Part shown: in pieces, positions 26-64,000 of the stretch
Layout: each line of letters begins with the position of its first letter
How positions within the stretch are numbered: position 1 is the first letter of the stretch
Assembly (NCBI GenBank): GCA_963742245.1
Contig: CAVULG010000007.1
Coordinates: 572,406-636,405, forward strand
From: an uncultured Acidobacteriota bacterium
GTDB lineage: Bacteria > Acidobacteriota > Thermoanaerobaculia > UBA5066 > Gp7-AA6
Length of the DNA: 64,000 nt
Direction: 5' to 3'
Position numbers and translations under genes: made by a program
The notes under the pieces: generated by a model
What the model was told of the DNA's origin: nothing
What the model saw: the letters and a program-made list of their open reading frames with translations, nothing else
Databases searched by the model: none

Positions 26-682
26 ATGACATTCCGATTTGGAACGTTCATTCTCGACACCGACTGCCGGGCGCTGACGCGCGACGGACGCAACGTCGCG
101 ATCTCGCCGAAAGCCTTCAAGCTGCTCCAGGTCCTGCTCGAGGGGCGGCCGCGGGCGATTCCGAAGGCGGAGCTGCACCAGAAGCTCTGGCCCGACACCA
201 TCGTCTCGGAGGTCAACCTCCCGACGCTCATCGCGGAAATCCGGCAGGCGACGGGCGACGACGCGCGGGCTCCCGAGTTCATCCGGACGGTCTATGGCTA
301 TGGCTACGCCTTCTCGGGCAATGCCGTGACGCTGCGCAAGGAGGGCGACCGCTCCGCCCACGGGGACCAGGTCTTCCGGTTGCTCTGGGGACAGCGCGAG
401 GTGGCGCTCGGGGACGGGGAGAACATCCTGGGTCGGGGCAACGACTCCCTCGTCTGGATCGATTCGAAGAGCGTCTCGCGCCGGCACGCGCGCGTCCACA
501 TCGACATGGGCCTGGCGACGCTCGAGGACCTGGGCTCGAAGAACGGCACGTTCGTCAACGGCATCCGCCTGGCACAGCCGATTGCCCTGCGCGACGGGGA
601 CGAGCTGCGCATCGGCACGGTGCCGATGACCATGAAAATCGCGGCCAAGCCGCACACGAGCGAAACCGCCACCGGCTACTGA
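26..682 (+). CDS. Transcriptional regulator: N-terminal OmpR/PhoB-type winged-helix DNA-binding domain fused to C-terminal FHA domain (no receiver domain)
   Basis: ORF 26..682; N-term FGTFILD...RNVAISPKAFKLLQVLLEGRPRAIPKAELHQKLWPD...LIAEIR matches trans_reg_C pattern; C-term ILGRGNDSLVWIDSKSVSRRHARV...GSKNGTFVNG matches FHA core. Confidence 0.75.
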   Translation: MTFRFGTFILDTDCRALTRDGRNVAISPKAFKLLQVLLEGRPRAIPKAELHQKLWPDTIVSEVNLPTLIAEIRQATGDDARAPEFIRTVYGYGYAFSGNAVTLRKEGDRSAHGDQVFRLLWGQREVALGDGENILGRGNDSLVWIDSKSVSRRHARVHIDMGLATLEDLGSKNGTFVNGIRLAQPIALRDGDELRIGTVPMTMKIAAKPHTSETATGY

Positions 683-9612: not shown

Positions 9613-9918
9613 CTAGCTCCCGGAGCCGACGACGCGGGGAACGACGCCGTAGCCGTGGACCTGCGCCGGGGAATTCGCGGCAAACGACTCGGCGCCCCGG
9701 CCGTCTCGCGGCGCATCCTCCCGCGCCGGCGTCGCGGCGGAGGGTCGCGCAGCCGCAAAGGCGTCCTCGGGGATCTGCTTCAACTGCTCGATGTACCCGA
9801 CGATGCGCGAGAGCTGCTCGGTCCAGAGAGGCAGCTCGGCCGCCGGCAGGCGGAGTCGGGCGAGCGCCGCGACCGCGCGCACCACGTCGGGAGTGACAAC
9901 ACGCGACGAGGATGACAT
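9613..9918 (-). CDS. gatC: Asp/Glu-tRNA amidotransferase subunit C
   Basis: C-terminal 101 codons of ORF 9613..11130 beginning MSSSSRVVTPDVVRAVAALARLRL; immediately upstream of gatA. Confidence 0.8.
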   Translation of the reverse strand: MSSSSRVVTPDVVRAVAALARLRLPAAELPLWTEQLSRIVGYIEQLKQIPEDAFAAARPSAATPAREDAPRDGRGAESFAANSPAQVHGYGVVPRVVGSGS

Positions 9919-9939
9919 CCTCGAAATTGTACCAGCCCG

Positions 9940-11208
9940 ATGCGCCGACGCCCCTCGCGCGACCCCTCTCGAGACCTCTTCCGCCTGAGGCGGCGGGCCG
10001 ACGTCCGCGCGCTCGCCGCCGCGGCATCGCGCGCGCGCATCGAAGCCTGGATCGTCGGCGGCGCCGTGCGCGATGCCCGCCTCGGTCTGCCGGTGCCGGA
10101 CGTCGACGTCGCCGTGTCGCGCGACGCGGAGGGGCTCGCGCGGGCCCTCGAGGAAGCCGGCGCGGGCCGCGCGATCTTTCTCTCGCGCGACCGGCCCGGG
10201 CCGCGCGTCTACCGGGTTGCGGGCCGCCGCACCCTCGACATCGCCGAGGTCGAGGGCGGCTCGATCGAGGCGGACCTCGAACGACGCGACTTCACGGTGA
10301 ACGCGATTGCCGTCCCCGTCCAGGCCGGCGCGGTGCTCGACCCGTTCGGGGGTCTCGAGGACCTCGCCCGGCGACGCCTGACACCCGTGCGCGCCGCGAA
10401 CCTCCGCGACGATCCGCTCCGCGCCCTGCGTGCCGCGCGCTTCCTCGCGACGCACCGCCTCGTGCCCACCCGGGAAACGCTGGCCGCCTCCCGGGCCGCG
10501 GCTCCGCACCTGTCGGCCGCGGCCGCGGAACGCATCGGCGGCGAGATCGCGAGAATCCTCGGAGCTCCCCGCGCCGCGCCCGCCGCGGCGTGGGCCGCGC
10601 GGGCCGGCATCCTGGCCGCGGCCCTGGGCGTCTCGCCGGAGATGGTCGCGCGGGCAGTCCGGGCGCTTGCCCCGTTCGACGACGCGGCGACACGAGGTCT
10701 CGCGGAGCCGCGGCGGCGTCGCATCCGCCTCGGGGCGCTCGCGTTCGCGCTCGGGCTCGAAGGCCGGCAGACCCGTGAATGGCTCGCGGCGCGCCGGCTG
10801 CCTCGAACCGACGTCGAGACGGCGGCGCGCCTGACCGAGCTCGCGCTCCAGGCGCTCGCGGGTCCCGGGCGGGGTGCACCGCGCCGGGAGGCCTGGCGCT
10901 GGATCCTGGATGCGGGGGCGCTCGCCCCCGACGCCCTGCACCTGCTGTCCCGGCTGGGCCGGCGCGCGCGCGACCGGGCCCGGACGCTCGCGCCGCTCAC
11001 GCGCCGCAAACCGCGGCGGGTCCGCTTGAGCGGCGAAGACGTCATGCTCTGGCTCGGCATCCCGGCCGGCCCGCAGGTTGGGCGCTGGCTGGAGGAACTT
11101 GCCGTGGCCGCCGCCGCCGGCGAGGTGCAAAGCCGGCGTGAAGCGCGGAACTGGCTGACCGGACAGGTCCGGGAAGCGCCCGCAGCGGCTATAATCCCTC
11201 TACATTGA
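9940..11208 (+). CDS. CCA tRNA nucleotidyltransferase / poly(A) polymerase family protein (start may lie ~60 nt downstream)
   Basis: ORF 9940..11208; IVGGAVRDARLGLPVPDVDVAV head-domain motif; only 21 bp separates it from divergent gatC, so start is uncertain. Confidence 0.7.
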   Translation: MRRRPSRDPSRDLFRLRRRADVRALAAAASRARIEAWIVGGAVRDARLGLPVPDVDVAVSRDAEGLARALEEAGAGRAIFLSRDRPGPRVYRVAGRRTLDIAEVEGGSIEADLERRDFTVNAIAVPVQAGAVLDPFGGLEDLARRRLTPVRAANLRDDPLRALRAARFLATHRLVPTRETLAASRAAAPHLSAAAAERIGGEIARILGAPRAAPAAAWAARAGILAAALGVSPEMVARAVRALAPFDDAATRGLAEPRRRRIRLGALAFALGLEGRQTREWLAARRLPRTDVETAARLTELALQALAGPGRGAPRREAWRWILDAGALAPDALHLLSRLGRRARDRARTLAPLTRRKPRRVRLSGEDVMLWLGIPAGPQVGRWLEELAVAAAAGEVQSRREARNWLTGQVREAPAAAIIPLH

Positions 11209-12659
11209 CTCTCGCCGAATTGCTCAAGTTCATGGCCAAGAAGGAGGCCTCCGACCTCCACTTGAAGCCCATGCGGCCGCCCTTGCTGCGCATCAAGGGC
11301 CGGCTGATCCCCTTGAACGCAGAGGCTTTGCAGCCCAAAGACCTCGAGGAGATGCTGCTCGCGATCCTCACTCCGGCGCAGCGCGAGCGCCTCGAGAAGA
11401 ACCAGTCCGTCGACGTCGGCTACGGCCTGACCGGGGTCGCCCGTTTCCGCTGCAACATTTTCGTCCAGCGGGGCTCGTACGCCGCGGTCTTCCGGCGGAT
11501 CCCGTTCAAGCTGCCCTCGATCTCCGAGCTCAACCTTCCCGACGTTCTCGAGACCTTCGTCCACCTGCCCAAGGGTCTGGTCCTCATCACCGGACCCACG
11601 GGCTCGGGCAAGTCGACGACGCTCGCGGGAATCATGCGCTCGATCATCGAAAAGCGGCCGGTCCACATCGTGACGATCGAGGATCCCATCGAGTTCCTCT
11701 TCGCCGACGGGAAGGCCGCCGTCTCGCAGCGCGAGGTCTCGACCGACTCCCCCAGCTTCGGCGAGGCGCTCAAGAACATGTTCCGGCAGGACCCGGACGT
11801 GATCATGGTCGGCGAGATGCGCGACTGGGGAACGATGCAGACCGCCATCACGGCGGCTGAGACCGGCCACCTCGTCTTCTCGACCCTCCACACCAACAGC
11901 GCCGCGCAGTCGATCGACCGCATCATCGATTCCTGTCCCCAGGAGCAGCAGGCCCAGGTCCGCTCGCAGCTTTCGATCGTCCTGCGCGCCATCGTCTCGA
12001 TGAACCTCATCGAGATCTCCGACGGGACCGGGCGCGCCGCGGTCGTCGAAGTCATGATCAACAGCCCGAAGGTCGAGAAGCACATCCTCTCCGGCGAGGT
12101 CAAAGAGATCCACGAGGAGATGGAGAACTCGGTCAATTACTACAAGATGCAGTCGATGAACCAATCCCTCATCGCGCTGCTCGTGAACAAGCGCATCACC
12201 TACGCGAAGGCGATGGAGATCTCGGTGGATCCGGAAGATCTGTCGCTCAAGCTGCGGAAACTCTTCCCGCAGATCGAGGAGAACCAGCGAGGAGGCCTCA
12301 TGGCGTCCGACAACGACTTTTCGCAGATCACCCAGTTGATCGAGATCAAGCGTCTGTACGAGGAGCAGGAAGAGAAGTGGAAACTGCGCCTCACGGAGAA
12401 AGAGGAAGAGCTCAACAAGTACCAGATGGAGCTGCGCGATCAGCGCAAGATCATCGAGGGCCGCGATCAGGTTCTGGGCGACGTCGAGGGCGAGAACAAC
12501 CGCCTCAAGGCCGACAACGACCGCGTCAGCCGCGAGTTCCAGCAGAAGATCGCGCAGTTGAACGAGCGGATCAAGGAGCTCAACCAGCGCCTCGTGGGTT
12601 CGGAGGGTGGCGGCCCCAAGGCCGCGGCCGGACAGGGCGGCGGCTTCTTCAAGAAGTAG
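11205..12659 (+). CDS. pilT: Type IV pilus retraction ATPase PilT family with ~130-aa C-terminal coiled-coil extension
   Basis: ORF 11205..12659; Walker A GPTGSGKSTT, PilT N-term MTLAELLKFMAKKEASDLHL; residues ~350-484 are E/K/R/Q-rich heptad-like (EEQEEKWKLRLTEKEEELNKYQMELRDQRK...) ending in Gly-rich tail; ATGA overlap with upstream cca gene. Confidence 0.8.
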   Translation: MTLAELLKFMAKKEASDLHLKPMRPPLLRIKGRLIPLNAEALQPKDLEEMLLAILTPAQRERLEKNQSVDVGYGLTGVARFRCNIFVQRGSYAAVFRRIPFKLPSISELNLPDVLETFVHLPKGLVLITGPTGSGKSTTLAGIMRSIIEKRPVHIVTIEDPIEFLFADGKAAVSQREVSTDSPSFGEALKNMFRQDPDVIMVGEMRDWGTMQTAITAAETGHLVFSTLHTNSAAQSIDRIIDSCPQEQQAQVRSQLSIVLRAIVSMNLIEISDGTGRAAVVEVMINSPKVEKHILSGEVKEIHEEMENSVNYYKMQSMNQSLIALLVNKRITYAKAMEISVDPEDLSLKLRKLFPQIEENQRGGLMASDNDFSQITQLIEIKRLYEEQEEKWKLRLTEKEEELNKYQMELRDQRKIIEGRDQVLGDVEGENNRLKADNDRVSREFQQKIAQLNERIKELNQRLVGSEGGGPKAAAGQGGGFFKK

Positions 12660-12727
12660 CGCCTTCCGCCGGAAGCGCGACACCGCGTCGGGTCCGGCCC
12701 CCTCGCAGCTCCGCCTCGCGCACTAGA

Positions 12728-14134
12728 ATGCGCGGTGTGACGGCCGCCGCCGCGTTGCGCGCAACAGTTCTCTCGATCCTCTCGATCTTCCCGCTCCTCC
12801 CGGTCCGCCCGCTTTTCGCGGTCCCGGCAACCCCCGGGCCGGACTCGTTCGCTCTCACGCAGGCCGAGGCGCTCCTGGAGCGCCGCGACTACCGGGGCGC
12901 CGAGATCGCCCTGCGGAAGATTCTCGAGGCCGACCCGTCCAATGCCCGCGCCCACGGCAACCTCGCCCTGGCCCTCCTCGAACAGAAGCGCCTGCCGGAA
13001 GCCATCGACGAGGGCCGTCTGGCCGCGGCCTTCGCTCCGGATCTGCCGGAGGCCCGCTACATCTACGGGATGACCCTGTCGCGCGGCGGACGCCCGGTCG
13101 ACGCCGCCCGGGAGTTCGAGAAGGCCGTCGCCGGCCGACCCGACTCCCCGGGCCTCCTCGGCGCCCTCGCCGCGGCCTACGCCGCGACCGGGGACGACCG
13201 CACCGTGGCGACCTACACCCGGCTCATCGCCCTCAAGCCCGACGATCGCCGCGCGTACGTGGAGCTGTCCGAGTACCTCTGGCGGATCGACCGCCACGCC
13301 GAGGGCAACCGGGTCATCGCCGACGCGCGCAAGGCGTTTCCCGAGGATCGGGACGTCGCGCTGAGACAGGGGCGCGCCTTCGTCCACCAGGACCTCGCCG
13401 TCGACGCCGTCGCCGCCCTCGAGGCCGCCCGCCGCCTCGGAGCCGGGGACGCGGCGACGTTCGAGCTCCTGGCGAGCGCCTACGCGCGGACGAACACTCC
13501 CGGCGCGGCGCGGGGAGCCCTGGAGGCCGGGATCGCGGCGCACCCCGACGACGCGGCGCTGCGCCACGACCTCGGCCGCCTGTTGCTTTCGGAGGGAATG
13601 AGCGCCGAGGCCCTGCCGCAGCTCGAAAAGGCGGCCGCCTCCCCGGGAGCCACGGCGGCCATGGCGTTGGACCTCGGCCGGGCGCTCGAGGCGCTCGGAC
13701 GGCCCGCGGAGGCCGAGGCGGCCTTCCGGAGTGCGATCCGCCTCTCGCCCGGGCTGGCCGGCGCCCACTTCGCCCTGGGACGCCTGCTCCAGCGCCAGGG
13801 CCGCAAGGACGAGGCCGAGCGGGAGCTCGCGGCGCATCGCGATCTCTACGAGAAGGGCCTCCAGCGCGTGGCCGCGGCCGATGCGCGGTCGGCCGAGCTT
13901 AATCACGCCTGGGCCGAGCTCAATCACGGCAACGCGGTCTCCTCCCTGGCGCGCTTCCAGGCCCTGCCCGAGACGGCCGAGGTCCTGCGCGGGCGCGCCC
14001 TCGCCCTCTCGCGCATGGGCAAGCATCGCGACGCCGCGGCTTCGATCGCGCGGGCGCTCGAGCTCGCGCCCGGCGATCCCCGTCTCGAGCTCCTCCTCGT
14101 CACCGAGCGGTCCCGCGCGGGCACCGGTCCGTGA
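12728..14134 (+). CDS. Secreted TPR repeat protein
   Basis: Internal start MRGVTAAAALRATVLSILSIFPLLP (ATG 12728) in ORF 12377..14134; multiple TPR-like repeats. Confidence 0.65.
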   Translation: MRGVTAAAALRATVLSILSIFPLLPVRPLFAVPATPGPDSFALTQAEALLERRDYRGAEIALRKILEADPSNARAHGNLALALLEQKRLPEAIDEGRLAAAFAPDLPEARYIYGMTLSRGGRPVDAAREFEKAVAGRPDSPGLLGALAAAYAATGDDRTVATYTRLIALKPDDRRAYVELSEYLWRIDRHAEGNRVIADARKAFPEDRDVALRQGRAFVHQDLAVDAVAALEAARRLGAGDAATFELLASAYARTNTPGAARGALEAGIAAHPDDAALRHDLGRLLLSEGMSAEALPQLEKAAASPGATAAMALDLGRALEALGRPAEAEAAFRSAIRLSPGLAGAHFALGRLLQRQGRKDEAERELAAHRDLYEKGLQRVAAADARSAELNHAWAELNHGNAVSSLARFQALPETAEVLRGRALALSRMGKHRDAAASIARALELAPGDPRLELLLVTERSRAGTGP

Positions 14135-15792
14135 GCTTCCTCTCCCTCGCGCTCCTCGCGCTCCTCGGAGCTCCTCTCGGCGGCACGGCCGCGGCGGCGA
14201 CCGCGACGGCGACAGACTGCCCCGTAACGTTCTCCGACGTCGCTGCGGCGGCGGGGCTGCGATTCGTGCACGACCGCGGCGCCGCGGGCGAGCACCGGCT
14301 GCCGGAGATGATCGGCTCCGGAGTCGCCTGGCTCGACTACGACAACGACGGCTGGATGGACCTGTACGTCGTGCAGAGCGGCCCCTTCCCGCCCGCCGGA
14401 AGCATGAAGGCGCGCGACCGTCTCTACCGCAACCGCGGCGACGGCACGTTCGCCGACGTCACGGAACGCGCGGGCCTCGCCGACACGGCCTACGGGATGG
14501 GCGCGATCGCCGCCGACTTCGACAACGACGGCTTCGCCGACGTCTACGTCACCAACTGGGGCGGCAACCTCCTGCTCCGCAACCGGGGCGACGGTACGTT
14601 TGCCGACGTGACCGCGAAAGCCGGAGTGGCGGGCCCGCGCTGGGGCACGAGCGGCGCCTGGGGCGACGCGGACGGCGACGGACTCCTCGACCTCTTCGTC
14701 GCGCAGTACGCCGACGACCGCAAGGACAAGACGCTCTTCTGCGGCGACGCGACGACCGGCGAACGCGACTACTGCCCGCCGATCATGTACGACCCCACCG
14801 TCAGTGTCTTCTACCGCAACGCCGGAGGCGGGACCTTCCGGGATGCCACGCGCGAGGCCGGCCTCGACAAGGCGCAGGGCAAGGCGCTCGGGGTGGTCTT
14901 CGCCGACCTCGACCTCGACGGGAGGCAGGACGTCTACGTCGCCAACGACCAGATGATGAACCTTCTCTTCCGCAACCTCGGAGGCGGACGGTTCGAAGAT
15001 GCGTCTGTAACCTCCGGAACCGGCTTCGGTCTCGAGGGCCAGCCCCAGGGCGGCATGGGCGTCGACGCCGGCGATCTCGACGGCGACGGCCTGCCGGACC
15101 TCGCGGTGGCCAACTACGAGTACGAGACCAACGAGTACTACCGCAACCTCGGCGCGGGTGTGTTCGAGGACCTCTCGGTCTCCTCGAACTTCGGGCCGCC
15201 GACCCTGCCCTACGTGAAGTTCGGGCTCAATCTCGTCGACGTCGACAACGACGGCGACCTCGACGCGTTCATGGCCAACGGCCACATCTACGCGAAGCCC
15301 AAACGCCAGGGGGCCACGGCCGAGCAGAAGCCGCTGCTCCTGTGGAACGACGGCAAGGGCCGGTTCCGCTCACAGGGCTGCGGCCCGGTCTTCGAGGTCG
15401 CGCTCGTCGGCCGCGGCTCGGCCGTGGCGGACTACGACAACGACGGCGATCCCGACATCGCGGTGTCGAACTCCGGCGGGCAGCTGCAGCTTCTCCGAAA
15501 CGACGGCCGCGCCGGCCGCTGGGTCGGCGTCGCCCTGAAGGGCCGCAAGTCCAACCGCCAGGGGATCGGCGCGCGGCTCACCGCCGAGCTGCCGTCGGGC
15601 CGGAAGCTCCAACGGCTCGTGCAGGCCGGGTCGAGCTACCTCTCGACGTCGGACCCGCGCGTGCTTTTCGGCCTCGGGAACGAGGCGTCGATCCGCAAGC
15701 TCACGATCACATGGCCGTCCGGGATGGTCCAGACGGTGGCGGACCTTCCGGCGGGGAAGTACGCGACCATCGAAGAAACCGCTGCGAAATAG
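14131..15792 (+). CDS. CRTAC1 family protein (FG-GAP/VCBS repeats + ASPIC/UnbV C-terminal domain)
   Basis: ORF 14131..15792; signal peptide; repeated DxDxDGxxD-containing FG-GAP-like units (LDYDNDGWMDLYV, ADFDNDGFADVYV, GDADGDGLLDLFV); ATGA overlap with TPR gene. Confidence 0.8.
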   Translation: MSFLSLALLALLGAPLGGTAAAATATATDCPVTFSDVAAAAGLRFVHDRGAAGEHRLPEMIGSGVAWLDYDNDGWMDLYVVQSGPFPPAGSMKARDRLYRNRGDGTFADVTERAGLADTAYGMGAIAADFDNDGFADVYVTNWGGNLLLRNRGDGTFADVTAKAGVAGPRWGTSGAWGDADGDGLLDLFVAQYADDRKDKTLFCGDATTGERDYCPPIMYDPTVSVFYRNAGGGTFRDATREAGLDKAQGKALGVVFADLDLDGRQDVYVANDQMMNLLFRNLGGGRFEDASVTSGTGFGLEGQPQGGMGVDAGDLDGDGLPDLAVANYEYETNEYYRNLGAGVFEDLSVSSNFGPPTLPYVKFGLNLVDVDNDGDLDAFMANGHIYAKPKRQGATAEQKPLLLWNDGKGRFRSQGCGPVFEVALVGRGSAVADYDNDGDPDIAVSNSGGQLQLLRNDGRAGRWVGVALKGRKSNRQGIGARLTAELPSGRKLQRLVQAGSSYLSTSDPRVLFGLGNEASIRKLTITWPSGMVQTVADLPAGKYATIEETAAK

Positions 15793-36480: not shown

Positions 36481-37299
36481 TTACGGGAAGTACAACCCCA
36501 ACGCGATGGACAGGAAGGCGGCCATCTGGCCGCGCGTCACGGGGGCGGCCGGACAGAAGTTGCCCCCGCCGCAGCCGGCCGTGATCCCGGATGCCGCCAA
36601 GGCCTCGATGTGCTGGAAGAACTGGTGATTCGTAGGCACGTCGGCGAACGTGGCTGTGCCGGGCGGCGTCGAGATCTGGCGCTTCCACTGAACGCGGAGC
36701 TTGTTGACTCTGTGGTCGGGGTACACGCCGTCCAGCTGCAGCCGAACGGTGTAGTAGCAATCGCGGTTGTTGACCGTAAAACCGCCGCCGCTGAGGAGGC
36801 CGGACTGGTACCCGGAGGAACCGGTGGTAGCGCCATCCGCCAGAACCGTGACGGTGGGCGGGCCGGGCGCGAAACTCGGCTGGCAGGTCGAGGTGACCGA
36901 AAAGAACACGTCCTCGTCGGCATCCGAATCGTAGGCCCACCAACGGAATGCTTCGACCTGCACCCCCGTCGGAAGGACCATGGGCGCGAAGCAATAACCC
37001 GTACAGACGATGTCCGTCGTGCCGCTGATCCATCCATCGGATTCAAACTGGGCAACGAATTCGGCCGGCATCACCGTGGTGAAGTGGGTATCCGCGCCCC
37101 AGTCTTCGGGCAACTCCGAGGGGGTCCCGTCCAGGCTCTTGGCGCGATAGACGTTCGTCGCGTCACGCGGGAAGCCCAGCGCCTCGAGCTGGTCCGGATC
37201 GGTCACGGGCGTACGCTCGATCTCGGGAACCTGCGCGAGGCCATTGGCCTCCAGGACGGCCGCGAGAACCGGGAGCAGTAACCAGCGAAGACGGTTCAT
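36481..37299 (-). CDS. Secreted Cys-containing beta-rich protein with single C-terminal SLH-like domain (GCGGGNFCP variant)
   Basis: Internal start MNRLRWLLLPVLAAVLEANGLAQ (ATG 37297-37299) in ORF 36481..37359; C-term FADVPTNHQFFQHIEALAASGITAGCGGGNFCPAAPVTRGQMAAFLSIAL. Confidence 0.6.
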   Translation of the reverse strand: MNRLRWLLLPVLAAVLEANGLAQVPEIERTPVTDPDQLEALGFPRDATNVYRAKSLDGTPSELPEDWGADTHFTTVMPAEFVAQFESDGWISGTTDIVCTGYCFAPMVLPTGVQVEAFRWWAYDSDADEDVFFSVTSTCQPSFAPGPPTVTVLADGATTGSSGYQSGLLSGGGFTVNNRDCYYTVRLQLDGVYPDHRVNKLRVQWKRQISTPPGTATFADVPTNHQFFQHIEALAASGITAGCGGGNFCPAAPVTRGQMAAFLSIALGLYFP

Positions 37300-37368
37300 G
37301 AAGGCCCCCTTGTCGAATGAGCGTTCATCTCCCTGCCCTTGACTCGGCGAAAACGGCACCCCAGGGCC

Positions 37369-58479: not shown

Positions 58480-61362
58480 TCAGCGGCCCGGGGGTCGGGC
58501 TCCGGGGATGCGGCGAACGGGCCGGGCCGGTCTGGCCGTCGGGCCCAACCCGAAGGTCCTCACCAGGAACGTGGACATCTGCCCGCGCGGGGTGGCCGCC
58601 GTCGGGCAGTAGTTCCCGCCCCCGCAGCCGACCGTGATGCCCTCGGCCGCGAGCTGATTGATCCAGTTCACGTTCGGTCCGCTCGGGCACGGGACGTCGT
58701 CGAAGACCGTGCCGGAGCAGGCGGGCGGCTCATAGCTCGAGCCGTGCTCGCCGAGCAGGAGGAAGACGGCCATCTGGGCCCGCGTCAGCGGGCTGCCCGG
58801 GCAATAGTTGCCGCCCCCGCAGCCGCCCGTGATGCCCTCCGCCGCGAGCTGATTGATCCAGTCGACGTTCAGGCCGCTCGGGCACGGCACGTCGGCGAAA
58901 ACCGTCCCGCTGCAGGCCGGCGGCGTGTAGCCGCCTCCGTGCACCCCCTTCAGAAGGAACACCGCCATCTGCGCGCGCGTGACGAGATTCGCGGGGCAGT
59001 AGTTGCCTCCCCCGCATCCCGCCGTGACGCTGGCCCGGAAGATCGACTCGATGTCGCCGTGGAAGATGTTCGACGACGGAACGTCCGAAAAGTCGGCGAA
59101 CCAGGCGTTCGCGAGCGTGCCGATCGGCGCGCTGGCGGGGTTGTCGACCGTCACGTCGTTGAGGGTGCCGGCCACGAGCGCGGGCGCCGAGGCGGTGAGG
59201 GAGCCCGGGCCGACGACCACGACTCCCGAAGCCGGAACGCCGCCGATCGCCAGCGTCGCCCCGCTCGCAAAGCCCGACCCGGACACGGTCACCGGTGTCC
59301 CTCCCGCGGCCGCGCCCGACGTCGGGGCGATGCTGGTGACGGCGGTTCCGCCCGGAGTCGTCGTCGGAGTCGGCGTCGGGGTCCGCGTGGGGGTCCGCGT
59401 CGGCGTGGGCGTCCGGCTGGGCGTCGGCGTGTTGGTCGGTGTGGCGGTGGTGAAGCTCGCGGTGTACGTCGTGTCGTCCGCGGGTGTCGCGATGTCGTGC
59501 GTCTGGCTTCCGCCGTCGGACCACGACTGGAAGTGGTACGTGTTGCCGCCCGACGACTGGGGCGAGGGAGCGCCGATCGCGCGCGTCACGTTCTCGACGC
59601 TCACGACCGTCTGCGGCGCCGTGAACGGCTGCCCGTCGAGCGTCAGCTGAAGCCCGGTCGGGCCCGTCCCCAGCGTGAGCGAGGAGGTCCGCGGGATCAC
59701 GTCCACGAACTTCTCGTCCGTGAGCGTCGCCGGATCCTTCACCGAGAGATAGAGCCGGTACCAGACGTTCGGCGACGTTTCGCCGACCGTCGGAATCGTG
59801 AAGGCGCCCGTCGCCGAACCGGTGGTCGGCGGCAGGAACGGGTGAAAGTGGGTATCGTGATGGAAGTTCACCCACCACGTGAAGGCGCTTCCCGGCAGCG
59901 CGCCCGTTTCCGGATCCGAGCCCGTTCCCGAGTAGTTGATCGTGTCCCCGGCGGCGTAGGTCGTGCCCGCCGGCGGCGCCGTGATCGTCGCCACGGGCGG
60001 CTGGTTGGTCGTCACCGACAGGGTCGCGGCCGCGCTCGTGTCGTCGCCGGAGGCGTTCGACACGACGCAGCGGAACTGGTCGCCGTCGTCGCCGATCACG
60101 ACGGAGGCGATCGTGTACGAGGAGGAGGTCGCACCGCCGATGTCCGCACCCTCGCGCTGCCATTGATAGGACAGCGGCGCGTCGCCCGTCGCGCTCACCG
60201 TGAACGTCACGGGATGTCCGGTCGAGATCAGCTGGCTCTGCGGGTCCTCGGTGACGACCGGATCCCCGGTGCCGGTGTAATTGACCTTGTAGACGCGACC
60301 CTGGCCCCGGGCGATGTAGTAGAGGTTGCCGTTGAAGTCCACGTGGACGTCGACGGGACTCGAGATGCCGGTCGCGAACGTCGTCGCCGAGGGATTACCG
60401 GAAGCCGGATCGACGTATCGGATCCAGCCCGCGCAATAGTCGGCGTAGAAGTACTTGCCGACGTAGCTCGCCGGAAACTGCGGCACGTCCGGGGCGTAGA
60501 AGTCTCCGCCGGCGATCGAGCAGGCGCCCCCGCTGTGGGGATAGAAGAAAAAGGGATCGGTGAACTCGGGGTCCGGCGGGCTGCAATCGCCTTCGCAATC
60601 CGGCCATCCGTAGTTCGCCCCCGCGCTCCCGACGTTGATCTCCTCCCAGGTCACCTGGCCGACGTCGTTGATGAAGATGACGCCCGTGTCGGGATGCACG
60701 GCGAAGGTGAACGGATTGCGAAGCCCGAGCGTCCAGATGGCGCGGTTGTTCCCGGTCGTGTCGTTGAAAAAGGGGTTGTCGGTCGGGATGAGCGCCTCCG
60801 GCGGTACGCCGACGCGGAGCACCTTGCCGAGGAGGTTGCCGAGCGTCTGCGAGTTCGACCCGTTCGCGTTGTCGCCGACCGCGACGTAGAGTTTGCCGTC
60901 CGCGCCGAAGTGGATCGCTCCCCCGTTGTGGTTCGTCGCACCCGACAGGTTGTTGAGCTCGAGCAGATTGACCTGGCTTCCGGCGAGGGCGACGTCGCCG
61001 TTGGCCGTCAGCCGCGCCAGCCGGTTGTGGGGCGGCGACCCGGGCACCGTGTAATAGACGTAGACGTACTGATTGAGCAGGAAGTTGGGGTCGAAGGCCA
61101 CGCCGAGAAGCCCGCGCTCCCCCATCGGATCGACCGAGAGCGTGACGAAGGGCGTCGCGAGTAAGGCGCCGTTCTTGATGATGCGGAGCTGTCCCCCCTG
61201 CTGGCAGACGAAAAGGCGCCCGTCGGGAGCCACGGCCATGGCCGTCGCGTTGGAGAGGCCCGAATAGGACACCTCGGTGAAGCCCGTGGGCAGCGTGGCG
61301 CCTCCCGAGAAGACGGCGAGGGCGAGCGCGGCCGCCGCGGCGGAAAGAACACGGGATCTCAT
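58480..61362 (-). CDS. Large cell-surface protein: signal peptide + PQQ-dependent sugar dehydrogenase-like beta-propeller + Ig-like + PKD-like + T/P linker + IPT/TIG + 3x SLH-like repeats (GCGGGNYCP variant)
   Basis: Internal start MRSRVLSAAAAALALAVFSGGA (ATG 61360-61362) in ORF 58480..62046; GSDH-like GLLGVAFDPNF...VYVYYT; Ig PVVTEDPQSQLISTGHPVTFTVSATG...FRCVVSN; IPT GGTPVTVSGSGFASGATLAIGGVPASGVVVVG; three repeats F.DVP...GITxGCGGGNYCP...TRAQMAVFLL. Confidence 0.75.
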   Translation of the reverse strand: MRSRVLSAAAAALALAVFSGGATLPTGFTEVSYSGLSNATAMAVAPDGRLFVCQQGGQLRIIKNGALLATPFVTLSVDPMGERGLLGVAFDPNFLLNQYVYVYYTVPGSPPHNRLARLTANGDVALAGSQVNLLELNNLSGATNHNGGAIHFGADGKLYVAVGDNANGSNSQTLGNLLGKVLRVGVPPEALIPTDNPFFNDTTGNNRAIWTLGLRNPFTFAVHPDTGVIFINDVGQVTWEEINVGSAGANYGWPDCEGDCSPPDPEFTDPFFFYPHSGGACSIAGGDFYAPDVPQFPASYVGKYFYADYCAGWIRYVDPASGNPSATTFATGISSPVDVHVDFNGNLYYIARGQGRVYKVNYTGTGDPVVTEDPQSQLISTGHPVTFTVSATGDAPLSYQWQREGADIGGATSSSYTIASVVIGDDGDQFRCVVSNASGDDTSAAATLSVTTNQPPVATITAPPAGTTYAAGDTINYSGTGSDPETGALPGSAFTWWVNFHHDTHFHPFLPPTTGSATGAFTIPTVGETSPNVWYRLYLSVKDPATLTDEKFVDVIPRTSSLTLGTGPTGLQLTLDGQPFTAPQTVVSVENVTRAIGAPSPQSSGGNTYHFQSWSDGGSQTHDIATPADDTTYTASFTTATPTNTPTPSRTPTPTRTPTRTPTPTPTTTPGGTAVTSIAPTSGAAAGGTPVTVSGSGFASGATLAIGGVPASGVVVVGPGSLTASAPALVAGTLNDVTVDNPASAPIGTLANAWFADFSDVPSSNIFHGDIESIFRASVTAGCGGGNYCPANLVTRAQMAVFLLKGVHGGGYTPPACSGTVFADVPCPSGLNVDWINQLAAEGITGGCGGGNYCPGSPLTRAQMAVFLLLGEHGSSYEPPACSGTVFDDVPCPSGPNVNWINQLAAEGITVGCGGGNYCPTAATPRGQMSTFLVRTFGLGPTARPARPVRRIPGARPPGR

Positions 61363-61424
61363 GGAAGACCCGCAGGCTAAGCCCGCCGGAGGCCGGGAGT
61401 CAACCTGTATGCCCCGGCCCGAGC

Positions 61425-64000
61425 CTAAGGGCGCGGCGAACGCGGCCGCACGGGCGGCCGGGCGACCGGTCCCTGGCGCAAGGTCGAACCGAGGCCGAAC
61501 GTGCGGACCAGGAAAGTCGCCATCTGCTGGCGCGGGGTCGCGGCGAGCGGGCAGAAGTTGCCGCCGCCGCAGCCCGCCGAGATGCCCTCGGCCGCGAGCT
61601 GGCCGATCCAGGCGGCGTACTGGCTGGGGCACGCCACGTCGCCGAAGACCTGCTGGCAGTCGGGCGGCACATAGGCGGACCCGTGCTCGCCGCGGAGGAG
61701 GAACACCGACATCTGCTGGCGGGTGACCGGGGTGTCGGGACAATAGAGGAGCGGGCTCGTCGCGCAACCCGACGTGATGCCCCGGTTGTAGAAGTCCTCG
61801 ATCCAGGCTGCGGCGAATGCATTGGCCGGAACGTCCGCGAAGAGGGTTCCGGTCGCCGCAGGCGGCTGGTATCCCGCACCGAGAGCGGACTTGAGGATGA
61901 GCACGGCCATCTGGGCCCGCGTGACGAGCCCCAGCGGGCAGTAGAGGCCGCCGCCGCATCCGCCCGTCACGCCGTTCCGGAAGGTCGCCTCGATGTCGTC
62001 GTGGAAGGGGTTCGTCTGGGGAACGTCGGCGAAGTCGGCGAACCACCCGTCGTCGAGGGTTCCACTCAGCGTCACGCGCTTGCCCAGCGCGAGCGCGGTC
62101 GTCACGGTGACGTCATTGAGCGTTCCGGCGGTCAACGATGGAATCGCGGCCGTAATGTTCGTCGGGCCGTGAACCACCACGGCCGTCGCCGGCGCGCCGC
62201 CCACCGAAACCGTAGCGCTCGCGGCAAAGTTGGTTCCGTCGATCGCGACCACGGTGCCTCCGCCCGCGGGGCCCGAGTTCGGCGCGATCCCCGAAACCGA
62301 CGGCGCTCCGGGCACCGGCGTCAGAGTCGCCGTCGGCGTCGCTGAGGCGGTCGGGGTGCGCGAAGGCGTTCGCGTCGGGGTCATGGACGGCGTCGTGGTC
62401 GTGGGCACGGCGGTGGCCGTCCAGGTCGGAGTCGCGGTGTTCGTCGCGGTGAAGGTCCGCGTGGCCGTGAACGAGGCTGTGGTCGTGGGAGGGATCGGCG
62501 TCGGCGTGTGGGTCGGCGTATTCGTCGGTGGCTGGGCAGTCAGCGTCGGCGTCGCGGTTTGCGTCGGCGTCGGGCCGCCAGCAACCGTCACATCCACCCC
62601 GTCGAAGACGCTCGTGCAAAGCAGAGAGTCGTTGTGGCTCGTGAGGGACAGACCCACGAGGACCGAAGCTGCCATCGGGATGGAATCGGAGCCGACGAGC
62701 GTCCAGGCCAGGCCGTCCGGCGAGTGAAACGCGCTGACGGTCGATCCCGTCCGCGTGAGACGCACCCAATACGGCGCCGCAACGAGCGGTCCCGGCGTGT
62801 GCGAAGTCGTGCCGCCGGTGCTGCTGCGCCGCTGGAAGGCGAGGCCGTTGACCGGCGTCATCGCCAGCATCGCGTGCCGGGAATCGGCGTTGAGCGACTC
62901 GCGGATCATGACGCCCCCCTTGGCCCAGGCGTCGGTGTTCTGGATGCTCGCGACCCGCGCGGTGATCGTCCCGTCGCCGGTGAGCGGCTGATAGACGAAG
63001 CCGAACTCGTCGGACTGCCCCTCGATGTCCTCGCCCGAGGCGAGGGCCGTGAACGCCCCCGACCCGAAAGTCGCGGTCCCCGCCACCCCCACCGGTCCGA
63101 CGTCCAGCCGGAGCCAGGGTGCCGGAAGCGGAAGCGGCGTCGCGGTCGCGGTCGGCGTTCGGGAGGGGGTGAACGACGCCGTCACCGTCGGGTGCAGCGG
63201 CGTCGGCGTCCGTGTCGCCGTGTTCGTCGGCGGCTGCGGCGTGGTCGTAACGGTTGGAGTCCGCGACGGCGTGAACGACGCCGTCACCGTCGGCGGCAGC
63301 GGCGTCGGCGTCCGTGTCGCGGTGTTCGTCGGCGGCTGCGGCGTGGTCGTAACGGTTGGAGTCCGCGACGGCGTGAACGACGCCGTCACCGTCGGCGGCA
63401 GCGGCGTCGGTGTCCGTGTCGCGGTGTTCGTCGGCGGCAGCGGCGTGGTCGTGACGGTCGGCGTCCGGGACGGGGTAAAGGACGCCGTCACCGTCGGCGG
63501 CAGCGGCGTCGGCGTGCGCGTCGCCGTATTCGTCGGCGGCTGCGGCGTGACCGTGGAAGTCGTGGTCGGCGTCCGGCTCGCGGTCGCCGTGAGCGTCGGC
63601 GTCGCGGTCTGTGTCGGCGTCGGACCCCCGGAGGCCGCGGTCACGGCGTCGAAGACGGCCGTGCCCAGAAGGGAGTCGTTGTGACTCGTGTAGGCCAGCC
63701 CGACGAGGACCGAAGCCGCCATCGAGATCGTATCGGACCCGACGAGGGTCCAGGCCACGCCGTCCGGCGAACGAAACGCGGCGATGCCCGTTCCCGCGCG
63801 CGTCACGCGCACCCAGTACGGCGCGCCGACGAGTGGTCCGGGCGTGTGCGCGGTCGTCCCCCCGGTGCTGGTGCGCCGCTGGAAGGCCATCCCGTTGAGA
63901 GGCGTCAGCGCCAGCATCGCGTGCTTCGAATTGGCGGCCAGCGACTCGCGGATCATCACGCCGCCCTTGGCCCAGGGGTTGGTGTTCTGGATGCTCGCCA
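61425..64000 (-). CDS. Large cell-surface protein, 5'-partial (continues beyond window): tandem ConA-like/DUF1349-like lectin modules separated by Thr/Pro-rich repeats + IPT/TIG + 3x SLH-like repeats
   Basis: ORF 61425..63959 remains open to window end (…ASIQNTNPWAKGGVMIRESL); duplicated module AWAKGGVMIRESLxAxSxHAML...PYWVRxTRxG; IPT GGTVVAIDGTNFAASATVSVGG; SLH-like repeats with GCGGGLYCP / GCATSPLLYCP / GCGGGNFCP. Confidence 0.7.
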   Translation of the reverse strand, partial: ASIQNTNPWAKGGVMIRESLAANSKHAMLALTPLNGMAFQRRTSTGGTTAHTPGPLVGAPYWVRVTRAGTGIAAFRSPDGVAWTLVGSDTISMAASVLVGLAYTSHNDSLLGTAVFDAVTAASGGPTPTQTATPTLTATASRTPTTTSTVTPQPPTNTATRTPTPLPPTVTASFTPSRTPTVTTTPLPPTNTATRTPTPLPPTVTASFTPSRTPTVTTTPQPPTNTATRTPTPLPPTVTASFTPSRTPTVTTTPQPPTNTATRTPTPLHPTVTASFTPSRTPTATATPLPLPAPWLRLDVGPVGVAGTATFGSGAFTALASGEDIEGQSDEFGFVYQPLTGDGTITARVASIQNTDAWAKGGVMIRESLNADSRHAMLAMTPVNGLAFQRRSSTGGTTSHTPGPLVAAPYWVRLTRTGSTVSAFHSPDGLAWTLVGSDSIPMAASVLVGLSLTSHNDSLLCTSVFDGVDVTVAGGPTPTQTATPTLTAQPPTNTPTHTPTPIPPTTTASFTATRTFTATNTATPTWTATAVPTTTTPSMTPTRTPSRTPTASATPTATLTPVPGAPSVSGIAPNSGPAGGGTVVAIDGTNFAASATVSVGGAPATAVVVHGPTNITAAIPSLTAGTLNDVTVTTALALGKRVTLSGTLDDGWFADFADVPQTNPFHDDIEATFRNGVTGGCGGGLYCPLGLVTRAQMAVLILKSALGAGYQPPAATGTLFADVPANAFAAAWIEDFYNRGITSGCATSPLLYCPDTPVTRQQMSVFLLRGEHGSAYVPPDCQQVFGDVACPSQYAAWIGQLAAEGISAGCGGGNFCPLAATPRQQMATFLVRTFGLGSTLRQGPVARPPVRPRSPRP
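63169..63576. repeat. Tandem repeat, 102-bp unit x 4 (encodes PQPPTNTATRTPTPLPPTVTASFTPSRTPTVTTT linker units)
   Basis: Unit gtgaacgacgccgtcaccgtcgg..gcagcggcgtcggcgtccgtgtcgc.gtgttcgtcggcggctgcggcgtggtcgtaacggttggagtccgcgacggc starts at 63169, 63271, 63373, 63475 (last copy diverged). Confidence 0.85.

Follow-up and report, generated by a model that had tools for sequence, protein, structure and literature searches.

The AIRNLIRE motif is located at the interface between PilT and PilC of the type IV pilus machine, and PilU, which has no AIRNLIRE motif, instead grips PilT through a C-terminal extension of its own (preprint 10.1101/2025.10.30.685630). The type IV pilus motor PilB of cyanobacteria also has a clade-specific C-terminal extension, which recruits Hfq (review PMC12288463). 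In type III secretion, translation of the gene for the cytoplasmic component SctQ can also begin at a conserved internal start, which has a ribosome-binding site to itself, and the short C-terminal product (SctQC) assembles with the full-length protein and is needed for function. CheA-L/CheA-S and ClpB are further cases in which one open reading frame (ORF) yields two products by in-frame internal initiation. To our knowledge, the short C-terminal wrap of PilU has until now been the main example of a PilT-type motor with a docking appendage. Here, we analyzed a stretch of 64,000 nucleotides (the window) from an uncultured Acidobacteriota bacterium of the class Thermoanaerobaculia (contig CAVULG010000007.1, positions 572,406 to 636,405), which contains a pilT-family gene encoding an ATPase with a long C-terminal tail. 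In the account that we favour, with a probability of about 0.5, the tail is a clade-specific module, and the gene would have its own promoter and two products, whose tails would form coiled-coil rods bearing anchoring peptides.

The motor core, the tail and their relatives

The pilT ORF of the window was found as the original prediction had described it, with the following features (window coordinates and strand; AF2, AlphaFold2; pLDDT, predicted local distance difference test).

11205..12659 (+): full pilT-family ORF, 484 residues plus stop, TTG start
11205..12239 (+): PilT N-terminal domain and ATPase core, residues 1-345 (TIGR01420 match, residues 3-345)
11592..11615 (+): Walker A motif GPTGSGKS, residues 130-137, read from the sequence and invariant in the alignment
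12069..12092 (+): site equivalent to AIRNLIRE, KVEKHILS (residues 289-296), followed by PilU-like GEVKEI (alignments to PilT4 and PilU)
12261..12314 (+): hinge, residues 353-370, of which 363-370 are predicted to be disordered (pLDDT below 50 at 363-372 in both AF2 models)
12290..12295 (+): internal Shine-Dalgarno (SD) sequence AGGAGG, in the codons CGA-GGA-GG(C) of R362-G363-G364, 4 nt before the ATG of residue 366
12300..12302 (+): in-frame ATG (M366), predicted from its conservation as the start of a tail-only isoform of 119 residues (12300-12659)
12315..12602 (+): one unbroken alpha-helix (371-466, 96 residues) that shows heptad periodicity (AF2 pLDDT 87-93)
12603..12641 (+): disordered Gly/Ala/Pro-rich linker, residues 467-479, of varying length among homologues (pLDDT below 50)
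12642..12656 (+): terminal peptide GFFKK, with the family consensus (K/R)(K/R)GFF(K/R)(K/R) at the C-terminal end (from homologue C-termini)

Relatives were found in three lineages. The organisms are known only from metagenomes. Lineage 1, which includes the window, comprises 80 genome loci of Thermoanaerobaculia with the same gene at 67-95% identity. Lineage 2 (Polarisedimenticolia-like, 45-54% identical) was found at 77 loci in a metagenome scan, and its only named members are labelled Candidatus Polarisedimenticolaceae and Ca. Sulfotelmatobacter, both Acidobacteriota. Lineage 3 is represented by one protein (P0135) of Thermoanaerobaculia, which is 55% identical. A protein search listed 120 clusters (the best of 8,000 scored), mostly of 460-510 residues and from metagenome-assembled genomes of Thermoanaerobaculia/Acidobacteriota, and they are annotated solely as "PilT/PilU family". 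It had been held against the original prediction in advance that the extension might turn out to be common and annotated in the clade; it is indeed common (more than 120 clusters, labelled PilT/PilU), whereas the extension itself is uncharacterised. The protein family and its routine PilT/PilU annotation are already known, and no prior description of a tailed PilT in Acidobacteriota was found in the literature examined. What appears to be undescribed is the module itself, its confinement to Acidobacteriota, the missing AIRNLIRE motif and a gene layout with two starts.

The ATPase core expected from the original prediction was present and intact. The 484-residue protein scored 413 bits (E 1e-123) against the TIGR01420 PilT/PilU hidden Markov model, above the cutoff of 319.1 bits, and residues 3-345 spanned positions 2-343 of the 343 in the model; the lineage 2 and lineage 3 proteins scored 405 and 417 bits. 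The protein also matched the Pfam family T2SSE (2e-43). Across 60-63 homologues, the Walker A motif GPTGSGKS (130-137), the Asp box EDPIE (159-163), the Walker B motif DVIMVGEMRD (198-207) and H222 and H229 of the His box were invariant. The nearest relative of solved structure was PilT4 of Geobacter metallireducens (334 bits, 46% identity, residues 4-350), followed in order by the PilT proteins of Aquifex, Thermus and Pseudomonas and then by Pseudomonas PilU (252 bits, 39%). The AF2 monomer superimposed on the PilT4 chain 6ok2_F with a template-modelling (TM) score of 0.90 (46% identity), and on the PilT4 and PilU chains with TM scores of 0.87-0.90, all normalised by target length. The GC content at codon positions 1/2/3 was 0.59/0.38/0.92 in the core and 0.65/0.29/0.89 in the tail, which shows the ORF to be coding, and it agreed with that of the other genes of the window (~70% GC). 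As judged from these alignments, the catalytic core is intact and under purifying selection. We take the gene to be a vertically inherited gene of Thermoanaerobaculia (Acidobacteriota) for a PilT-family secretion/pilus ATPase with a predicted hexameric form.

The tail sets the protein apart from all solved relatives. Canonical PilT has ~340-375 residues, compared with 484 here, and the solved PilT/PilU chains (356-402 residues as deposited) aligned to residues 1-353 only, leaving 354-484 unmatched. The C-terminal extra stretch comprises residues 346-484 (139 residues) and ends in GGGPKAAAGQGGGFFKK. Two AF2 runs of the monomer, with 63 and 117 sequences, gave the same architecture: a well-modelled PilT core, a disordered hinge at 363-370, an unbroken helix at 371-466 (pLDDT 87-93 in the deeper run, with 117 sequences) and a disordered end at 467-484. 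The long extension of the original prediction was thus supported as helical and Gly-tailed, with its predicted coiled coil in the helix and its Gly-rich part in the Gly/Ala linker. When hydrophobicity was averaged over the alignment along the whole helix, its peak period was 3.52 residues, and the power at 3.50 was 2.2 times that at 3.60 and almost 10 times that at 3.67. Such long-range heptad coherence would fit a left-handed coiled coil and not a single amphipathic or charged helix.

Conservation in the tail is concentrated in three blocks that are invariant or nearly so. The first reads DPEDLSLKLRK-FP-IEE..GG.M..NDFS.I..L...K.LYE.QE, the second KI..LN.RI..LNQ and the third, at the C-terminus, GFFK(K/R). 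The helix itself begins with DFSxIxxLxEIKxLYEEQEE and closes with KIxxLNxRIKELNQ. The distance from the DFS block to the L..RI..L block was 81 residues in 271 of 298 sequences, with poor conservation in mid-helix, and 14-37 residues separate the last conserved block from the C-terminus among homologues. The C-terminal residues are GFFRR, GFFKK or GLFRR in nearly every complete lineage-2 gene, with (K/R)(K/R)GFFRR as the lineage-2 peptide. It is near certain that the module consists of a rod of fixed length (~14 nm, estimated as 96 residues x 1.5 Å), a flexible leash and a conserved terminal peptide. Comparison of the tail with Pfam and NCBIfam and a profile search of the PDB gave only sub-threshold generic coiled-coil matches, so that no curated family covers it.

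Compared with PilT (G. metallireducens PilT4, 6OJX/6OK2; P. aeruginosa PilT, 3JVV), the tailed protein has the same two-domain fold and all catalytic motifs, its N-terminus aligns residue for residue, and it scores above the TIGR01420 cutoff. It differs in its 139 additional C-terminal residues, in a gene without pil genes nearby, in a predicted leaderless non-AUG start with a second, internal start, and in the AIRNLIRE position. A residue-by-residue alignment to PilT4 showed that KVEKHILS shares only ~2 of 8 residues with canonical AIRNLIRE; the motif is likewise absent from lineages 2 and 3, and P. aeruginosa PilU carries LAADLIRKGEVHEL at this position. The absent motif, as read from these alignments, does argue against a canonical PilT role. 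PilU (PDB 9N32; 10.1101/2025.10.30.685630) resembles the tailed protein in having no AIRNLIRE, GEV(H/K)E after this site and a C-terminal extension peculiar to its family, through which PilU docks to another component of the machine. Unlike in PilU, the tail is ~4 times longer, unrelated in sequence and built as a rod with a terminal peptide instead of a wrap-around segment; the gene is not encoded beside a pilT gene, and the identity to PilU (39%) is below that to PilT (46%). As the protein is overall nearer to PilT, it appears to have lost AIRNLIRE and acquired its C-terminal appendage independently of PilU, by convergent change within Acidobacteriota.

Cyanobacterial PilB is similar in that its C-terminal extension, too, is specific to the clade and sits on a type IV pilus motor ATPase; in PilB, it docks a partner. 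PilB, however, is an extension motor and not of the PilT type, and its extension has no sequence similarity to the tail. In lineage 2 (L089-L158, e.g. L139 8667-10204), a convergent hfq-miaA pair follows the tailed pilT in at least 11 of 18 long loci. This adjacency of hfq, which the window does not have, may be plain, coincidental synteny.

Authenticity of the tail and a predicted internal start in the hinge

A misassembled or frameshifted downstream ORF joined to a normal pilT could in principle have produced the tail, and a long alternative ORF (12377-14134) does overlap the tail region in another frame. In the overlap, however, GC at third codon positions was 0.89 in the tail frame compared with 0.32 in the frame of the ORF from 12377, and many separate assemblies, at 80 + 48 + 1 independent loci, show the tail conserved and in frame. 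In lineage 2, it was fused in frame to the PilT core in 48 of 48 loci with enough upstream DNA, and the remaining 29 of the 77 loci run into the contig end. Wherever a related locus of the three lineages has sufficient sequence, the tail continues the frame of the core, so a frameshift origin, which the original prediction had raised against itself, and a misassembly are both refuted by the comparative data, and we consider them practically negligible.

To survey the spread of the module, we searched the tail profile against 1.84 billion representative proteins and obtained 176 matches at E <=1e-3. Besides a few giant multi-stretch coiled-coil proteins, these were the PilT subfamily or its fragments. 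Within the sequences compared, the tail module is found only fused to PilT, in three acidobacterial lineages with three different housekeeping neighbourhoods.

The matches also include a few dozen representative clusters of proteins of 102-122 residues that start at the hinge Met; these ~115-residue clusters (P0125-P0263, P0271-P0382; loci L081-L087, L165, L166) are labelled "hypothetical/chromosome segregation ATPase". A free-standing small partner of PilT, of the Rosetta-stone kind, was considered and rejected, as all nine of the short proteins checked were artefacts and the lineage-2 genes were fused in 48 of 48 cases. Six of the nine lie at a contig edge with the frame open to the edge (P0182, P0207, P0155, P0300, P0334, P0248), two come from frameshifted long-read assemblies with the PilT core just upstream in another frame (P0331, P0272), and one lies across a scaffold gap of Ns (P0233). 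There is a systematic breakage of contigs at the core-tail junction, probably through collapse of the conserved ATPase core in metagenome assemblies, and gene callers then choose the internal SD/ATG. P0122 (472 residues) is a database chimera in which a PilB/GspE-like N-terminal part is joined at Walker A to a tailed PilT, most likely a metagenome misassembly across the conserved P-loop. A search for type IV pilus genes of the clade through the PilB-like N-terminus of P0122 returned only fragments from other phyla.

The hinge holds a second signal. Its codons Q361-A367 read CAG CGA GGA GGC CTC ATG GCG, and the bases at -10 to -5 from the ATG were A-GG-(A/T)-GG in 81 of 81 lineage-1 sequences. 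CGA is used for only 1 of the 32 Arg codons of the tailed pilT. Over 152 conserved four-fold-degenerate columns (77 unique genes), the mean third-position A/T content was 9%; codons 362 and 363 were the only columns to reach 50%, and both stood at 100%. M366 was conserved at 90% or more in two alignments of homologues. The internal AGGAGG matches the SD consensus at 6 of 6 positions, better than 38 of the 39 annotated gene starts in the window, where many annotated ribosomal-protein genes carry similar SD sequences.

The signal was also found where the protein sequence has changed. In lineage 2, the linker residues differ (EHGEP, EEGEP, QGDS and others), and GGAG is kept at -9 to -6; GGA was used in 29 of 39 genes, compared with 18% GGA among all Gly codons, and 61% of the sequences had an SD score of at least 5 of 6, compared with 4.8% of background positions. 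In lineage 3, the element reads AAGGAGG-N5-GTG, so the residue has changed from Met to Val while the codon remains a start codon. By these comparisons, an SD sequence and an in-frame start codon placed exactly in the hinge are maintained by selection at the nucleotide level.

A conserved in-frame start with an SD sequence kept by selection at synonymous sites is the pattern of the SctQ/SctQC type, and both are cytoplasmic components of secretion machines. The two differ in family and fold, the short tail product is here only predicted, and its proposed co-assembly would use a coiled coil and not SPOA domains. Since AGGAGG-N4-ATG is held by rare codons in every lineage-1 sequence, we predict the 119-residue isoform, and we rather expect that the gene expresses two products, the 484-residue motor and the free tail.

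The start of pilT and its genomic neighbourhood

The region in front of pilT and its neighbours contain the following features.

9940..11208 (+): gene of the CCA-adding/poly(A) polymerase family (PF01743 6.7e-19, PF12627 5e-4)
11190..11195 (+): TATAAT, a perfect -10 box 9 nt before the pilT start, with a conserved G at -14 (comparative)
12659..12678 (+): GC-rich hairpin GCGCCTTCCGCCGGAAGCGC, from the last base of the pilT stop, with no T-run on the + strand (hairpin scan)
12728..14134 (+): TPR-repeat protein with an N-terminal hydrophobic, signal-peptide-like segment (Pfam TPR families)
14131..15792 (+): FG-GAP/ASPIC-UnbV (CRTAC1-like) protein (PF13517 2.7e-58, PF07593 3.1e-18)

The TATAAT at 11190-11195 is the only copy on either strand of the window, and this uniqueness is not significant by itself because 30 of 100 shuffled sequences carried at least one copy. 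Across lineage 1, TATAAT was found 7-11 nt before the pilT start in 75 of 79 loci (9 nt in 63 of them), and these boxes account for 75 of the 81 TATAAT sequences in 1.416 Mb of loci. The G of the extended -10 element, two bases before the hexamer, was conserved at 96%. No conserved -35 element and no SD sequence (SD score 2 of 6 in the window) were found upstream of pilT in the lineage-1 loci. Among the four loci without a perfect TATAAT, L040 has the near-match TTATAC, and the three most divergent have a purine-rich SD sequence instead; lineage 3 has TGATACAAT-N6-GTG at the pilT start. The box is kept in both settings, within the final codons of cca and in spacers between the two genes, which reach 519 nt.

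The start codon was TTG in 64 loci, CTG in 10 and GTG in 4, and its position corresponds in the alignment to Met1 of canonical PilT. Third positions are variable in codons 2-9, and in five orthologous loci an in-frame stop 6 nt upstream excludes an earlier start. The ten orthologues with CTG at this position (L051, L062, L064-L067, L069-L071, L073) have TATAAT 8-11 nt upstream, and in some of them a close upstream in-frame stop leaves no alternative start; CUG initiation would be unusual.

A TANNNT sequence ~10-12 bp before the start codon is an accepted signature of leaderless genes (PMC3160421). The arrangement TATAAT-N9-TTG corresponds to that description (-10 box ~6-12 nt upstream, no SD sequence; PMC3160421) and suggests that pilT has its own promoter and a leaderless mRNA, or one with a 2-3-nt leader. 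A non-AUG start on such a leaderless-type mRNA in turn suggests a low output of full-length protein. At the other end of the gene, the hairpin GCGCCTTCCGCCGGAAGCGC is reported by the scan on the minus strand only, and it could be a terminator without a U-tract.

The original prediction had pilT translationally coupled to a CCA-type nucleotidyltransferase through an ATGA overlap. The overlap is TTGA, as pilT starts with TTG: the TGA stop of cca and the TTG of pilT share 4 bases, and the last cca codons hold the pilT -10 box. TTGA was found in 29 of the 77 lineage-1 loci with a measurable distance, and the spacing in the others was +2 to +519 nt. More distant tail-bearing relatives carry cca either in convergent orientation or not at all, and the coupling was not supported. 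Coupling to cca would be at most accessory, in some strains. As for the identity of the upstream gene, the PolyA_pol head domain supports membership of the family, whereas the best NCBIfam match (PRK13299, 106.7 bits compared with a cutoff of 290) and every other CCA-adding equivalog fell below their cutoffs, so family membership is as far as the assignment goes. Its true start is probably downstream of 9940. gatC (minus strand, end near 9915; window 9613-9940) is divergent from the cca ORF, whose first ATG (9940) is ~25 bp away; probably, the real cca start lies further downstream, or gatC and cca both have minimal leaders.

In nearly all 80 lineage-1 loci, the gene order is amiC-gatA-gatC (-), cca (+) pilT (+), vanZ-rplQ-rpoA-rpsD (-). 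The lineage-2 gene lies, without cca, between mutS2 and a convergent hfq-miaA-spoIID/SPOR-folE block, and the lineage-3 gene between a PF03706 gene (lysylphosphatidylglycerol synthase transmembrane domain) and acpP-fabF. Some further tail-bearing relatives have cca convergent and downstream. The conservation of the cca-pilT linkage in relatives, proposed earlier as a check, thus extends through lineage 1 and is absent from lineages 2 and 3, and in these gene maps the linkage is a lineage-specific synteny. A functional tie to cca was rejected on the varying spacing and orientation and on its absence from lineages 2 and 3.

The TPR and CRTAC1 proteins noted earlier downstream on the same strand were both seen by Pfam. 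The TPR gene had no match in 50 of the 80 lineage-1 loci, on which ground a functional tie of pilT to these genes was rejected, and full-length matches of the CRTAC1-like gene occurred only in lineage-1 loci that carry the TPR gene. Only some lineage-1 loci have the pair (12728-15792) between pilT and vanZ (cf. L003, L004, L006, L010), and it behaves as an inserted two-gene cassette beside the ribosomal-protein operon.

The reported lack of adjacent pil genes was borne out. No pilus genes were found among the 34 ORFs of the window scanned against Pfam, with most of the minus strand at ~16-50 kb left unscanned; the ORFs sampled there were ribosomal-protein and translation genes, and the rest were assumed to be alike from their position and size. 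Neither a pil gene nor a second T2SSE-type ATPase was found within 10 kb in 146 related loci of any lineage. As pilT is often unlinked from other pil genes, missing pil neighbours do not by themselves show an orphan function.

The window also holds gatCA, an amidase, a large ribosomal-protein/rpoBC/tuf region, tsf-rpsB-pyrH-frr and a few other genes. A small protein with an OmpR-type winged-helix DNA-binding domain (Trans_reg_C) and an FHA domain is encoded at 26-682 (+), a 292-residue SLH-domain protein at 36481-37359 (-) inside the ribosomal-protein/rpoBC region, and a 1188-residue protein with a glucose/sorbosone dehydrogenase domain, Ig/TIG domains and SLH at 58480-62046 (-).

Proposed mechanism, alternatives and meaning

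In the favoured account, pilT would be transcribed from its own promoter as a near-leaderless mRNA, uncoupled from cca. Six tails would leave the hexamer on the side of the C-terminal domain, which, by analogy with the model in 10.1101/2025.10.30.685630, would hold the AIRNLIRE position and face PilC. The heptad helices of two motor tails, or of a motor tail and a free tail, would join as coiled-coil rods, and the GFF(K/R)(K/R) tips on their flexible linkers might serve as multivalent anchors, each of them weak, that attach to the anionic inner membrane or else to a partner in the base of the machine. In this way the motor could be kept close to where it acts or be placed around a second ATPase, and the tethered motor, like PilU, would no longer dock to PilC through AIRNLIRE. 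The tether function of the tail is a reasoned guess by analogy, which we put forward tentatively. We are similarly doubtful of the full scheme, in which a weakly translated leaderless motor and an efficiently translated free tail would co-assemble into tipped rods and so tether a hexamer that lacks AIRNLIRE.

Several points weigh against this account. A standard sigma-70 -35/-10 scan found no promoter pair, so that the promoter call depends on the conserved extended -10-like element. In the model bacteria examined to date, leaderless mRNAs initiate poorly from UUG or CUG. AGGAGG is common inside the genes of the window (68 copies compared with 38 expected), and because it is frequent in coding DNA here, the argument for the internal start is carried by the comparative data. 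The pairing of helices is read from the heptad periodicity, the AF2 model being a monomer, and the proposed binding of GFFKK to a membrane or partner is argued by likeness to basic-aromatic peptides that bind membranes. Both the transcription start site and the short isoform are predictions.

Other explanations deserve weight beside it. The tailed protein could be a PilU-like accessory motor that sits beneath a canonical AIRNLIRE-bearing PilT encoded elsewhere, with the tails reaching round the hexamer to the membrane or base, much as the PilU C-terminus wraps PilT but over a greater length. The lost AIRNLIRE with GEVxE after it fits this, as does the C-terminal extension, which is the hallmark of PilU and mediates the PilT-PilU contact, and by our own estimate of the geometry the 14-nm rod and its linker would be long enough to pass a hexamer with a thickness of ~5-6 nm. 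Yet the protein is closer to PilT4 (46%) than to PilU (39%), the tail is not homologous to the PilU C-terminus, and neither an adjacent pilT nor a second T2SSE-type ATPase within 10 kb was seen in the 146 loci, while pilT and pilU usually stand in tandem; we therefore regard a PilU-like role as rather unlikely. An orphan retraction-type ATPase with a non-pilus function, co-expressed with cca by translational coupling, was the idea behind the original prediction. The lack of pil genes within 10 kb in three lineages, each with its own housekeeping surroundings (gatCA-cca/ribosomal operon; mutS2/hfq-miaA; PF03706 gene/acpP-fabF), the loss of AIRNLIRE and the TTGA overlap in 29 loci all speak for it. 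The spacing to cca of -4 to +519 nt, the convergent or absent cca of other lineages and the conserved -10 box of pilT itself speak against the coupling, and the generally common unlinked position of pilT, the score well above the PilT/PilU family cutoff and the want of any conserved neighbour hinting at another substrate or partner speak against the orphan function, which leaves this explanation improbable.

It is also conceivable that the gene makes a single product. The internal AGG(A/T)GG-ATG would then be a translational pause element that lets the core fold ahead of the tail's emergence, or an inert relic left when pilT fused, long ago, with a small gene downstream of it. Intragenic SD-like sequences have been proposed as ribosome pauses, although this is disputed; the element does lie exactly at the domain boundary, and no stand-alone tail gene was found in any lineage. 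In a relic, however, two four-fold sites would not stay at 100% A/T across 77 unique genes when the background is ~9%. The retention of ATG or GTG while the residue passes from M to V fits a start better than a pause, and the SD sequence is kept in lineage 2 despite different linker amino acids. A single product consequently seems to us an unlikely, though not a far-fetched, outcome.

For database users, there is a practical lesson: the databases hold a few dozen clusters of spurious "hypothetical coiled-coil proteins" of ~115 residues, and all those checked were pilT fragments. For type IV pilus biology, the recruitment, holding and exchange of retraction ATPases at the pilus base is an open question. 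Acidobacteriota abound in soil and sediment, and the tailed subfamily, conserved in two or more of their classes, represents an independent natural experiment in which the PilC-facing motif was lost and a rod of fixed length with a terminal peptide was gained. Its gene layout predicts separate dosing of motor and tail. If the full scheme of co-assembled, tipped rods is true, it would be a new means to recruit and dose a type IV filament ATPase, or a non-pilus motor, that evolved convergently with PilU in Acidobacteriota.

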